From: an uncultured Gammaproteobacteria bacterium | GTDB lineage: Bacteria; Patescibacteriota; Patescibacteriia; UBA1558; GWA2-36-10 | NCBI GenBank assembly: GCA_964633905.1 | Contig: CAZWIT010000005.1 | Location: 26,610 to 90,609, forward strand | Direction: 5' to 3' | Length of the DNA: 64,000 bases | Shown: positions 8,566 through 12,770 of the stretch, one piece after another | Layout of the letters: every line of letters starts with the position of its first letter | Numbering within the stretch: the first letter of the stretch is position 1 | Made by a program: the position numbers and the translations under genes | Notes under the pieces: generated by a model | Told to the model about the DNA's origin: nothing | What the model saw: only the letters and a program-made list of their open reading frames with translations | The model's database searches: none

Positions 8566-8653
8566 ATTAATATTATATATTACTAAATTTATTTTTGTCA
8601 AGAAAATAAAAAACCAAGCCTTATGCCTGGTTTATATATTATTATTTTTTATA

Positions 8654-9346
8654 CTACCAACCTTTATTAGCAAGAGCCGCAGCTGCAGCCTCGGTCTGAG
8701 CTTCTTGCTTGCTATAACCCTCGCCTTCAGCAATTAATTCTTTATCAAGGTAAACGCCAATTACAAATTTCTTGTGATGATCAGGACCAGATTCTGATAA
8801 TACCTTATAACGTGGAGTAATACCAACTTTTTCTTGAGACTTTTCTTGAAACAGACTCTTGGCATCCACATAAGATTTATCAGCAATCAACTTTTCTAAA
8901 TGAATCAAAATATTATCCTTAACAAATTTAGCAGCTGTTTTATAACCTTGGTCTAAATAAATAGCTCCAATCACTGCCTCCATAGCATTAGCTAAAATAT
9001 AACTACGTGCTTTTTTATTGGTATCTTGAGCTTCACCGCGACTTAGATATAAATAATCATAAAGTCCTAGATTTTCTCCTTGCGCGGCTAGTTGGGTAGC
9101 ATTTACTAAGCCTGAACGCCAATTAGTAAGGACTCCTTCTGGATCTGGATAGTTGCGATAAAGGTGATCAGTAACAGCTAATTCTAAAACTGCATCACCC
9201 AAAAACTCTAGACGCTCATTATGGTCAATGGCAAAATCCTTATGCTCATTAATATAAGAACGATGCACTAGAGCGTTTCTTAAAATATTTAGATCTTTAA
9301 AATCTACTGCTAATTTTTTTTGCAATAAGTCTAAATTCTTATTCAT
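8654..9346 (-). CDS. rnc: Ribonuclease III
   Basis: RNase III signature ERLEFLGDAVLEL with a C-terminal dsRBD; length 230 aa. Confidence 0.9.
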   Translation of the reverse strand: MNKNLDLLQKKLAVDFKDLNILRNALVHRSYINEHKDFAIDHNERLEFLGDAVLELAVTDHLYRNYPDPEGVLTNWRSGLVNATQLAAQGENLGLYDYLYLSRGEAQDTNKKARSYILANAMEAVIGAIYLDQGYKTAAKFVKDNILIHLEKLIADKSYVDAKSLFQEKSQEKVGITPRYKVLSESGPDHHKKFVIGVYLDKELIAEGEGYSKQEAQTEAAAAALANKGW

Positions 9347-9457: not shown

Positions 9458-10327
9458 TTATTCTAAACCTAGTTTAGCCAAACCTTTGTGAAAAATATCT
9501 TTAGCATTTTCATAGCCAAAAGTAGAGAGAGCTTCTGACTGACTAAACCATTTTACTTCTTTAATTTCTGTAACATCTGCCGCGGGTTGAACTAACTCTG
9601 TATCTTTAGCTTCTACTAAATAATATTTTATCAATTTACGAAAAGGTTTAGCATCTGGCTTATGCACCTTTACTTCGGTTTCACCTAAATATTCAATAAC
9701 TTTTAATTTTTGCAAACCAGTTTCTTCTCTGAGTTCTCGTAGAGCTACCGTTTCCAAAGTTTCACCCTCTTCAACATGGCCCTTAGGGAAAGTCCATTTA
9801 CCATAAGCATCAAGCACTAAACAAAAATTATAGCCGAGCTCTGTTTTGTGATAAACCATACCGCCAGCAGAAATTTCTTTTATACCTTGGCTAGCCAGAG
9901 TTTGTTTTTCACCTTTACTCATCATTTCTTTATAAATGCTACCTAAAACACCATTAACAAATTTACCACTAGCATCACCGCCAAAAGCTTTAGCAAGCTC
10001 AATAGCCTCGTTGATTGCTACCTTGGGCGGTATTTCTTGGGATACTTTTAATTCATAAATGCCAATGCGTAAAACATTACGATCAACCATAGTAATCTGG
10101 TCTAGTGGCCATTCTGGTGCAAATTGGACAATTAATTTATCAATTTCACGTCTATTTTTAACCACTTGACGAACCAAATTTAAAGCAAATCCCTGATCGT
10201 CAAAATCAGGGGCAAATTCTTGCTGATCATAATCCAAAGACTCCAATACATCATGCTCAGCATTGGTAAAATCCCATTCAAACAAAGCCTGCAAAGCAAT
10301 GGTCCTAGCTAAGTGTCTGTTGGCCAT
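9458..10327 (-). CDS. nusB: NusB (transcription antitermination factor) fused to a C-terminal NUDIX hydrolase domain
   Basis: Residues 1-140 match NusB, including the C-terminal block KVAINEAIELAKAFGGDASGKFVNGVLG. Residues about 150-289 carry a perfect Nudix box, GHVEEGETLETVALRELREETGL (G-x5-E-x7-REUxEExGU). It is a single uninterrupted ORF. Confidence 0.8.
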   Translation of the reverse strand: MANRHLARTIALQALFEWDFTNAEHDVLESLDYDQQEFAPDFDDQGFALNLVRQVVKNRREIDKLIVQFAPEWPLDQITMVDRNVLRIGIYELKVSQEIPPKVAINEAIELAKAFGGDASGKFVNGVLGSIYKEMMSKGEKQTLASQGIKEISAGGMVYHKTELGYNFCLVLDAYGKWTFPKGHVEEGETLETVALRELREETGLQKLKVIEYLGETEVKVHKPDAKPFRKLIKYYLVEAKDTELVQPAADVTEIKEVKWFSQSEALSTFGYENAKDIFHKGLAKLGLE

Positions 10328-10334
10328 TTTATAT

Positions 10335-10505
10335 TTATTTTATTTTTTTCTCACCTTTGTAATAGCCACATTTAGCACAAGCTCGGTGTGGCATAATAGT
10401 TGCTCCACAATTTGAGCATTTGGTAGTGCTTTTTGGTTTTAAAGCAAAGTGTGAAGCTCGACGACGAGCTGATCCTTTTGTTCTTTTCTGTGTTTGTAAA
10501 GCCAT
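10335..10505 (-). CDS. rpmF: 50S ribosomal protein L32 (not in ORF track, 56 aa)
   Basis: Hand translation of the minus strand gives MALQTQKRTKGSARRRASHFALKPKSTTKCSNCGATIMPHRACAKCGYYKGEKKIK. The N-terminal basic block and the CxxC...CxxC zinc ribbon are typical of bL32. Confidence 0.75.
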   Translation of the reverse strand: MALQTQKRTKGSARRRASHFALKPKSTTKCSNCGATIMPHRACAKCGYYKGEKKIK

Positions 10506-10862
10506 AAATAGATATTTACGATTAAAATTATTGACCAGATTGTACCCGAAAAAAATAATATGGTCAAGAATAGTTTTTTTAGTCTTATCTGGCCTTAATT
10601 ATAACATTATATTTTATCCTTGACAATAGTAAAAAAACGTGATATTATTGTTTATCGATAAACAAAAACTAAAAAAATAGCTTATTTACAGCTAGTTCAT
10701 GAAATTTTCCCAGGCAACTGTGTCCACGACAAGCATGGGAATCATTTTTTCTGATCCTATTTGGTTCCGACTGAATATTTTCAAAAAATGGTTTTCTTGG
10801 GCACAGTTATTTGGGAAAATTAAAAAACCGCCCCTAATAAAGGCGATTTTTTTATTTAAAAA

Positions 10863-12770
10863 TTAATTAGTGCTAGTAGCCGGTGGTAAAACTGGAGGCG
10901 TAGTAGTACTACCAGGTACTACTGGTACTCCGCCATTTGCTTCAGCATCAATTTCTTCTTGGGTAGCGCCAACTAAACAAACTTCTTGCCAAGGCACATA
11001 ATGACTGGTAAAAGTTACTTTAGTAGCTTCTGCCTCTCCAGCTTTTTGCACAAAATAATCAAATTTAGCATCAGCACCGTTGTGCGCTCTTTCAGTACAT
11101 TTAATTTGCCCGACTGGCAGGGTTGTAGTTTTGCTTACTTTTTTTGCTGGTGGCGCTACTTGATTATAAATAATAGGCTTAGTAGTACTAGCCACACGAC
11201 CATCGGGTGTTCCCCAAAAATCAAAATAAATTTTCATACCCTCTATCCGTGATTGTATCAAAATATAATGACCCGTATCATTGATAAATTTTAAATCTGG
11301 TTTAGGCGAATAAATAGTAGCATCCATACCCGCTGGCTCATAATAAACTACTCGATAAGAATGATTGCGCCTTTCCGTAATAGGTAAGCCAGTGCCTAGA
11401 GCGGCTCGAAAAACTGTCGTGCCAATCTGACACAAACCACCACCATATTCGGGAACAGTTTTGTTGCCTTTAATAACTAGTTCTTGTTTATAACCATGCT
11501 CTCCATCAATTTCTCCCAAAGCAGTGATTAAAGAAAATTCTTCATCTGGTCTAATAAGTAATCCATTTAAAGATTCCGCCCCTACTTTAATATTGTGAAC
11601 ACGATTAACTGGACTACCCGTAAAATCAGATTCGCCAGTACCAATGACTTTTTTAATACCTAAGTCATTTACATCACCATTCATCACTCTTGGTTCTATT
11701 ACTTCTGTTGCCAAAGCTATTTTTAATTCAGCCTTATTATCATTTAAAACTTTATTTAAATTATCCAGCAGCTCTGTTTGCTTAATAGCCCTACCTTGCT
11801 GGCTACTCATAAACTCAGACACTTTGCCATTAGTTAATTTAAATTTTGCATCTTGCACCGGTATTTCTACTGCTTCATAAATACCACTATCCGTTAAATA
11901 CTTTTGCAAGCTTTCTTGATTAAAAGTTAATTCTATTTTATTATCTAATACTAACTTGAGCCAAGACTTCCAAGTGTTAGCTGGAATTGCCCAATCTTTA
12001 TCTTCCCAAGTCAGATGTAAATCACCACGATTAGGTAAAGCTAGTATTTGAGTTTGATGTTGTTTGATAATAGCCGCTGTAACCTGTGGTTCGTCAGCTA
12101 CTATTTTTAATGATATTTCCTTATTATCCAAATATTTAATACGATCCAAGGTGTCTTCTAAGGCCAACTGATAATCGAATGTTTGCCCTACTTTTTCTGG
12201 AACTATCTCTAGGTTATTTTCTCTAAAAGAAAAACTAGCTTCTTGCTTATCACTCAAGACATCATTAAGACTATCGCGTAAAATCTGAATATGCTGTTCT
12301 CGATCCCAAGTATAAGACAATGACCAATTCTTACCTTTAGCCCAAACATAGATTTTATTAACTAAATTCCCTAAACCATTATCAGCTTGCCAATTTTTAA
12401 TAGCTTGCAAACTATTTTCTGCCTGCCAAATAATAATTGGGTAAGAAATATCAGCCGATTCTGTTGAAGAAACCGAAGGTAGAATAGTAATCTTCTTATC
12501 ATTTAAACGATAAACTAAGCCCTGTCTATTAAGTTCATCAATCCTAGTCTGAACCTTAATTTTGGCTTGTTCCAAGTTTAGATTAGAAATATCCACCCCT
12601 CCTAAGCTAGTACCTGGCAAATAAACATCCTTGTATTTTGTATTAATGGAAGCATTAGCTGTCAAAACTATAGCTAATAAAAAAATAAGGACAATCAAAA
12701 TCCACAAAACTAATTTGATTATCTTTATATTTTTATCTTGACGCAAACTTTCTTTGATTTTATTTATCAT
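10863..12770 (-). CDS. VanW-domain membrane-anchored protein (YoaR-like)
   Basis: N-terminal TM segment and a C-terminal region with the VanW-family motif GGGLCQIGTTVFRAAL. Pro/Thr-rich C-terminal tail. Confidence 0.65.
   Translation of the reverse strand: MINKIKESLRQDKNIKIIKLVLWILIVLIFLLAIVLTANASINTKYKDVYLPGTSLGGVDISNLNLEQAKIKVQTRIDELNRQGLVYRLNDKKITILPSVSSTESADISYPIIIWQAENSLQAIKNWQADNGLGNLVNKIYVWAKGKNWSLSYTWDREQHIQILRDSLNDVLSDKQEASFSFRENNLEIVPEKVGQTFDYQLALEDTLDRIKYLDNKEISLKIVADEPQVTAAIIKQHQTQILALPNRGDLHLTWEDKDWAIPANTWKSWLKLVLDNKIELTFNQESLQKYLTDSGIYEAVEIPVQDAKFKLTNGKVSEFMSSQQGRAIKQTELLDNLNKVLNDNKAELKIALATEVIEPRVMNGDVNDLGIKKVIGTGESDFTGSPVNRVHNIKVGAESLNGLLIRPDEEFSLITALGEIDGEHGYKQELVIKGNKTVPEYGGGLCQIGTTVFRAALGTGLPITERRNHSYRVVYYEPAGMDATIYSPKPDLKFINDTGHYILIQSRIEGMKIYFDFWGTPDGRVASTTKPIIYNQVAPPAKKVSKTTTLPVGQIKCTERAHNGADAKFDYFVQKAGEAEATKVTFTSHYVPWQEVCLVGATQEEIDAEANGGVPVVPGSTTTPPVLPPATSTN

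Follow-up and report, generated by a model that had tools for sequence, protein, structure and literature searches.

The window analysed here, a stretch of 64,000 nucleotides of contig CAZWIT010000005.1 from an ultra-small bacterium (Patescibacteria), with a G+C content of 34.8%, carries a gene in which the transcription factor NusB is followed in the same reading frame by a Nudix hydrolase domain. The open reading frame (ORF; 9458–10327, minus strand) is complete both in the ORF list and in the sequence, beginning with ATG and encoding 289 amino acids (aa) before its stop codon. On the same strand, residues 1–138 form the NusB domain (9914–10327), residues 139–150 a linker, GEKQTLASQGIK (9878–9913), and residues 151–289 a Nudix domain (9461–9877) of the type found in hydrolases of diadenosine tetraphosphate (Ap4A) and other diadenosine polyphosphates (ApnA). 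Within the latter, the Nudix box, GHVEEGETLETVALRELREETGL (residues 183–205; 9713–9781, minus strand), can be read straight from the sequence. The original prediction of a single in-frame NusB-Nudix ORF at this position, for which no strand had been given, was borne out on the minus strand, and both sequence blocks quoted in it occur in the ORF.

In a Pfam scan of the 289-aa protein, NusB (PF01029) matched residues 7–133 with an E value of 1.6e-36 and 126 bits (cut-off 23.1), and NUDIX (PF00293) matched residues 175–277 with an E value of 2.7e-20 and 73 bits (cut-off 21). The NCBIfam nusB equivalog TIGR01951 covers residues 4–134, corresponding to profile positions 2–130 of 131, at 136.4 bits against a cut-off of 88.35, and GHVEEGETLETVALRELREETGL fits the Nudix box GX5EX7REUXEEXGU exactly. 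These matches support the complete N-terminal NusB domain and the perfect Nudix box that had been foreseen.

NusB ranks with the most highly conserved transcription factors of bacteria and, as a rule, is an RNA-binding protein of 130–150 aa with nothing appended, which pairs with NusE (ribosomal protein S10) to bind boxA RNA in the antitermination of rRNA and of lambda N. The N-terminal 138 residues of the fusion have the same fold, occupy the same gene slot and retain the boxA-contacting residues of canonical NusB. However, canonical NusB ends just after helix α7 (139–156 aa in the PDB matches), whereas the fusion adds the linker and a 139-residue enzyme domain. Sequence matches to NusB entries in the PDB have E values of 2e-22 to 3e-15, and Foldseek superimposes this half on the Thermotoga maritima and Aquifex NusB structures with template modelling (TM) scores of 0.84–0.90 and a root-mean-square deviation (rmsd) of 1.5–2.0 Å. 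In the AlphaFold2 (AF2) model, residues 1–138 form seven helices, the last being α7 (118–138), with a predicted local distance difference test (pLDDT) score above 90. The boxA-contacting residues F122 and E81 in α7 and α4 of NusB, respectively, correspond to F123 and D82, both of which are invariant in sets of 22 and 85 family members, and the nearly invariant F16 is the equivalent of Y18, the NusB5 site of NusB.

In the structure of the Aquifex NusB-NusE-boxA complex, K118 contacts G9, F122 stacks on U8 and S128 contacts C6 (PMC3177189). Helix α7 therefore runs 3′-to-5′ along boxA, and we infer that its C-terminal end, where the linker of the fusion begins, points to the 5′ side of boxA.

Membership of the RsmB family was rejected, as RsmB models match only residues 7–142 at 57 bits against 319, and the C-terminal half is a Nudix domain and not a methyltransferase. 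The likeness is one of architecture only, RsmB/Sun offering a precedent for a NusB-fold RNA-binding module that delivers an enzyme to ribosomal RNA (rRNA). RsmB/Sun, however, combines a NusB-like domain with an rRNA 5-methylcytosine methyltransferase, whereas the fusion is the orthologous NusB proper joined to a hydrolase.

For the Nudix half, which in the model has the α/β/α Nudix fold, the best sequence match in the PDB is the Aquifex Ap4A hydrolase 3i7u (aq_158; E value 3e-15, 33% identity), to which Foldseek aligns it with a TM score of 0.89 and an rmsd of 1.5–1.8 Å. Next in rank are Thermus Ndx1, an Ap6A hydrolase, Chlamydia CT771, the Caenorhabditis elegans and human (NUDT2) Ap4A hydrolases, and mycobacterial MutT1/Rv2985, and the same Ap4A/ApnA enzymes lead both the PDB sequence list and the Foldseek list. 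A WxFPKG motif preceding the box is common to the Nudix half and the Ap4A/ApnA hydrolases. Judged by these sequence and model comparisons, the asymmetric Ap4A/ApnA hydrolases are the closest of the characterised enzymes to the Nudix half. Such hydrolases are stand-alone or fused to another domain, as in MutT1, but none of those listed here is joined to a transcription factor.

All NCBIfam Nudix equivalogs score below their cut-offs, the highest being NF041652 with 38.5 bits against 200, and no family named as an Ap4A hydrolase is among the 25 listed NCBIfam matches. Assignment to RppH (PRK00714 models; best 36.8 bits against a cut-off of 118), YtkD (TIGR02705; 31.7 bits against 154.4) and MutT (TIGR00586 and PRK10776; 26–30 bits against 98–148) was rejected, and RppH of Bacillus subtilis (4jzu) appears in the PDB search only with an E value of 1.9e-4 over 44 residues. 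A likeness to RppH, one of the enzymes named in the original prediction, was thus not confirmed, the domain grouping with the asymmetric Ap4A/ApnA hydrolases and failing the RppH and MutT cut-offs. RppH and YtkD belong to the same superfamily and remove 5′-pyrophosphate and nucleoside tetraphosphate (Np4) caps, the role that had been proposed. The fusion may work like RppH but is no member of that family.

A search with the Nudix half retrieved 8813 representatives at E ≤ 1e-3. Among the best 150, most are stand-alone proteins of 130–175 aa with 35–45% identity, few are NusB fusions, and others are tandem Nudix proteins or are joined to unrelated partners. The small Nudix family to which the C-terminal half belongs seems to be a frequent fusion module. 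A hidden, diverged NusB domain in long representatives having about 140–240 extra N-terminal residues was ruled out, these being tandem Nudix proteins or fusions to unrelated partners. One set of relatives (P0189, P0150, P0153, P0214, P0228, P0124, P0167 and P0267) is fused to varied partners, which include sigma70_r4 with DnaA_C, TPR with PDZ, an NAD-dependent epimerase and a second Nudix domain; in P0214 and P0228, the Nudix domain is paired with C-terminal fragments of radical-SAM and EPSP-synthase domains.

The fusion is widespread. A protein identical to that of the window (P0001) is present in public data on independent contigs, and both Pfam domains occur in all 120 best homologues (54–100% identity, 285–303 aa), which come from many independent assemblies. 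Where named at all, these proteins are called only "NusB", and the second domain consequently goes unnoticed in public databases. No description of a NusB-Nudix architecture was found in the literature searched, although the sequences are public.

The survey of NusB architectures in Patescibacteria that the original prediction had called for was made with one genome per species. It returned 80 loci, drawn from at least 584 NusB-encoding loci, that were re-analysed ORF by ORF. One uninterrupted NusB-Nudix ORF of 286–324 aa was found in 53 of them; in four, nusB is followed by a separate, adjacent Nudix gene; and the remaining 23 have NusB only (141–201 aa). The order rpmF-nusB(-nudix)-rnc-smc is common to nearly all 80 loci. 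Since the fusion occupies the same slot as the NusB-only orthologues, it represents nusB itself by orthology, as opposed to an additional paralogue. The NusB-Nudix pairing is real and is conserved across many Patescibacteria.

By group names that rest on record titles, so that the distribution by taxon is to be read accordingly, the clade of the window (55–69% identity) includes Komeilibacteria, and a second fused clade, referred to as Paceibacteria-type (38–45% identity), includes Campbell-, Taylor- and Nomurabacteria and Paceibacterota. Saccharimonadales and Saccharibacteria are among the split loci, and Buchanan- and Kerfeldbacteria among those with NusB only. Several typical Patescibacteria loci (L001, L003, L005, L007, L008 and others) sit in TPA_asm records with untrustworthy taxon titles, namely "uncultured Gammaproteobacteria bacterium" or "uncultured Candidatus Saccharibacteria bacterium".

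In the four split loci (L066:5995-6984, L067:5995-7014, L072:5995-6999 and L074:5995-7005), a nusB gene with a Lys-rich tail and a TAA or TAG stop precedes a separate Nudix ORF of 166–189 aa with a canonical box and, at its N terminus, a basic extension rich in Lys and Arg; rnc comes next. The NusB-Nudix association thus takes two forms, that of a fusion and that of conserved neighbouring genes. The Nudix ORF shares the reading frame of nusB in all four loci. Programmed read-through was judged unlikely, given the TAA and TAG stops and a spacer in L072 that holds four stops; the shared frame is probably a trace of evolution from, or towards, a fused gene. The fused Nudix domains are acidic (net charge about −4), whereas relatives that are split or extended at the N terminus carry extensions rich in Lys and Arg and are basic. 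Such a difference would be expected if tethering to RNA is provided by NusB in the fusion.

A short tail motif, GE[AV]PI[ST]E, recurs in a group of NusB-only genes (L037, L051, L055, L057, L058, L069, L071 and L077), and the NusB-only gene of L077 keeps the tail NGEKQNMES, which resembles the window-type linker GEKQxLxS. From their sequences, such tails may be what is left of a Nudix domain that was lost.

The catalytic residues are kept in the clade of the window. Its 85 proteins all share G183, R197, E198, E201 and E202, with E189 conserved to at least 90%. Conservation extends beyond the box to E254, which is invariant in the 85 sequences and aligns with a Glu of the Aquifex Ap4A hydrolase. 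A canonical box is present in 15/15 Komeilibacteria-type genomic copies and in 4/4 split copies. On this pattern of residues, the Nudix domain is apparently catalytically competent in the window's clade.

A different picture emerged for the Paceibacteria-type fusions (L015-L065, L070). The Glu of the RE pair is replaced in 24 of 39 copies (14 by K, 5 by A, 4 by V and 1 by G), the first Glu of the EE pair in 5/39 and the Arg in 6/39. In the structures of dihydroneopterin triphosphate pyrophosphatase (DHNTPase), C. elegans Ap4A hydrolase and RppH, the glutamate of RE binds the metal directly (PMC5526541). Parsimony on a neighbour-joining (NJ) tree gave at least 9–10 independent switches between a canonical and a degenerate box. 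The ratio of nonsynonymous to synonymous substitution rates (dN/dS, or omega) over the Nudix half is 0.046, 0.069 and 0.071 for the close degenerate-box pairs L034/L044, L021/L026 and L031/L039, respectively, and overall the omega of degenerate-box Nudix domains, 0.05–0.09, is about equal to that of the NusB half. Several motifs outside the box are more than 90% conserved, and VHDxFGxWTLSKG, NEYxAxxPExGKxRKQVxYFLAE, GGLDxAxWF and LNFYxDILPIxTKA are extra motifs conserved in these fusions.

As the domain remains under purifying selection while its box is replaced, hydrolysis cannot be the sole reason for keeping the fusion. What holds the Nudix domain on NusB in the Paceibacteria-type clade is probably not canonical hydrolysis, and the sequence pattern looks like repeated conversion to a pseudoenzyme, although altered boxes do not prove inactivity.

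An AF2 model of the whole protein (m72f4be4011dd), built with 85 family sequences, has a mean pLDDT of 91 and a predicted TM score (pTM) of 0.54, with the helices in residues 2–138 and the Nudix fold in 151–285. Confidence is low in the linker, where the block 141–150 has a pLDDT of about 58 and residues 144–146 fall below 50. Even so, members of the window's clade share the conserved linker sequence GEKQxLxSQGIKE, E140 being invariant and G139, K141 and E151 nearly so. The model describes two independent domains on a short flexible tether and not a packed unit. The arrangement of a helical N-terminal domain, a hinge and a Nudix domain recalls the eukaryotic decapping enzyme Dcp2, and Foldseek aligns 5n2v, 5j3t, 6am0 and 5kq4 over both halves (242–260 columns). 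However, the rmsd is 13–16 Å, identity is 13–16% and the helical domains are unrelated; the likeness is an analogy and not N-domain homology.

Distance-based trees, which are weakly supported, were used to follow the history of the association. In the NJ tree of Nudix domains, the Komeilibacteria-type and Paceibacteria-type fused clades adjoin, and the split copies group, with weak resolution, with N-terminally extended stand-alone proteins; the split group was not resolved as their sister in this tree, which is weak evidence on a single origin of fused and split copies. In the tree of NusB domains, the majority of NusB-only sequences cluster together next to the clade of the window, within which L050 and L073 nest. 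When this tree is rooted on the split group, parsimony gives presence of the Nudix domain as ancestral with about 6 changes. The clade of fused and NusB-only sequences has a bootstrap support of 15/40. These results favour, without proving, an old NusB-Nudix association from which the domain was later lost in some lineages.

The genes on either side agree with the position given in the original prediction, downstream of rpmF and upstream of rnc, and both neighbours were identified by profile matches. The gene for ribosomal protein L32, rpmF (10335–10505, minus strand; PF01783 with E value 2.4e-15, and TIGR01031), ends 7 nt before the ATG of the fusion, and the RNase III gene rnc (8654–9346, minus strand; TIGR02191, 223 bits) starts 111 nt past the fusion stop codon. 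Most of the 80 loci also have rpmF as a neighbour, and rnc lies downstream of nusB or nusB-nudix in nearly all, so that the gene has RNA-processing surroundings that are conserved. No second NusB gene and no second Nudix gene was found in the 64-kb window.

A consensus scan placed a promoter-like site, TTGTCA-17-TATAAT with a TG element, upstream of rpmF (10598–10626, minus strand), a possible operon start, and a terminator-like hairpin with a T-run directly after rnc (8611–8633, minus strand), a possible operon end. These sites would fit a possible three-gene unit rpmF-nusB-rnc as pattern matches and not as evidence of function. The next gene after rnc in the window is smc, and just before it, directly after the terminator-like hairpin, is a sigma-70-type promoter match of 12/12, TTGACA-18-TATAAT (8572–8601, minus strand), which suggests that smc is transcribed apart from rpmF-nusB-rnc. 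Upstream of rpmF lies a gene for a 635-aa VanW/PG_binding_4 protein (10863–12770, minus strand), and another terminator-like hairpin is found at about 10820–10846 between it and the rpmF unit. Of 14 Komeilibacteria-type loci, 9 have a VanW-type match upstream, and loci at greater distance have none.

The reading put forward here, to which a probability of about 0.35 is assigned, is that the fusion would be a NusB-tethered hydrolase acting, at nascent RNA that bears boxA, on 5′-terminal polyphosphate or Np4 caps or on local dinucleoside tetraphosphates (Np4N). By analogy with known NusB, the NusB half would bind boxA on the nascent transcript together with NusE (S10), which would place the tethered Nudix domain at the 5′ side of boxA. 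There it could hydrolyse an Np4 cap arising from Np4A-primed initiation, a 5′-triphosphate, or free Np4N near the polymerase. In this way, an operon that also encodes RNase III would link 5′-end processing, or clearance, to antitermination of the rRNA type; in the split version of Saccharimonadia, the same enzyme would be encoded next door by a gene of its own and carry a basic extension at its N terminus. A role at RNA 5′ ends is supported by the finding that NUDT2 trims PPP-RNA to P-RNA (PMC8616924), by the occurrence of Np4 caps in bacteria and their removal by Nudix and Ap4A-hydrolase enzymes (PMC8833179, PMC7044304, PMC13010140), and by the charge pattern of fused versus split domains. 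The more general proposal, made in the original prediction, that hydrolysis of 5′ ends, caps or alarmones is coupled to the antitermination complex is a plausible hypothesis.

Several observations weigh against this assignment. The Nudix half falls far below the curated RppH and YtkD cut-offs. The RE glutamate, a metal ligand elsewhere, is replaced in 24/39 Paceibacteria-type copies that still retain the domain, and many close relatives have no Nudix domain, so it is dispensable in some lineages. The AF2 model (pTM 0.54) gives no fixed interface between the two domains, and coupling would have to be by the tether only. A boxA-like motif (GCTCTTTAACAA, allowing up to 2 mismatches) occurs in the window at chance level, 16 times against 15 expected, and a search for 16S and 23S starts, made to find an rRNA leader, gave none in the window and none in the 80 loci.

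It is possible, if somewhat doubtful, that the domain is a housekeeping hydrolase of Ap4A and other dinucleoside polyphosphates (NpnN) or of some other small nucleotide, e.g. an oxidised nucleoside triphosphate, and that two neighbouring genes were joined by loss of a stop codon with co-expression as the only consequence. A pairing that persists, fused or neighbouring, over deep divergence (identity classes of 34–69%) argues against such an accident, as do the strong purifying selection on degenerate-box fusions (omega 0.05–0.09) and the conserved linker sequence of the window's clade. The explanation nevertheless accommodates the split, adjacent-gene state, the repeated loss of the domain in close relatives and the absence of a predicted inter-domain interface. 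It also draws on the prevalence of stand-alone proteins of 130–175 aa among the closest relatives, the many unrelated partners that this Nudix family joins, and the acidity of the domain, unlike typical RNA-binding Nudix enzymes.

Less probable, and on balance unlikely, is a mainly binding role of the Nudix fold in the antitermination complex, with a protein partner, the 5′ end of an RNA or a nucleotide (or alarmone) as ligand; hydrolysis would then be secondary or would only reset the signal. The at least 9–10 independent box switches, replacement of the RE glutamate in 24/39 Paceibacteria-type fusions, purifying selection about equal to that on the NusB half and the several strongly conserved motifs outside the box all speak for a role of this kind. 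A precedent for an enzyme fold in the rRNA antitermination complex is SuhB, which is part of the Escherichia coli NusB/NusE/boxA complex (PMC6614801, PMC6614797); SuhB, however, is a polypeptide of its own with an unrelated inositol monophosphatase fold, so that no homology is expected. Retention of the catalytic residues in the window's clade (15/15 genomic copies and 85/85 proteins) and in the split genes (4/4) argues for real catalysis in the former.

That sequencing, assembly or annotation merely made two genes appear joined, through a frameshift or a missed stop codon, can be dismissed, since the fusion recurs across many independent assemblies as a continuous ORF of 286–324 aa with a conserved linker in 53 species-representative genomes and in 120/120 best homologues, and the identical protein is also found on independent contigs; the split Saccharimonadia arrangement shows only that separate genes can exist.

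Carried further, the proposal of a NusB-tethered hydrolase leads to an idea that is improbable as it stands, namely that the Nudix module provides an unrecognised subunit activity of the bacterial machinery for rRNA antitermination. It would be a polymerase-proximal reader or eraser of 5′-terminal Np4 caps or triphosphates, or of Np4N, delivered by NusB and boxA, and would repeatedly have become a non-hydrolysing reader, a pseudoenzyme, in Paceibacteria. If true, organisms that have only a minimal set of regulators would possess a direct link from nucleotide stress signals, or from the status of 5′ ends, to the synthesis of rRNA. The sister clade offers a natural experiment that separates catalytic from binding roles, as its catalytic residues were lost repeatedly while the domain stayed under selection. 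A conserved enzyme on the boxA-binding helix of NusB in a large part of Patescibacteria provides a testable handle on two questions: whether non-canonical 5′ caps, triphosphates or dinucleoside polyphosphates are handled co-transcriptionally at the antitermination complex, and how genome-reduced bacteria compact RNA processing into one rpmF-nusB::nudix-rnc unit.

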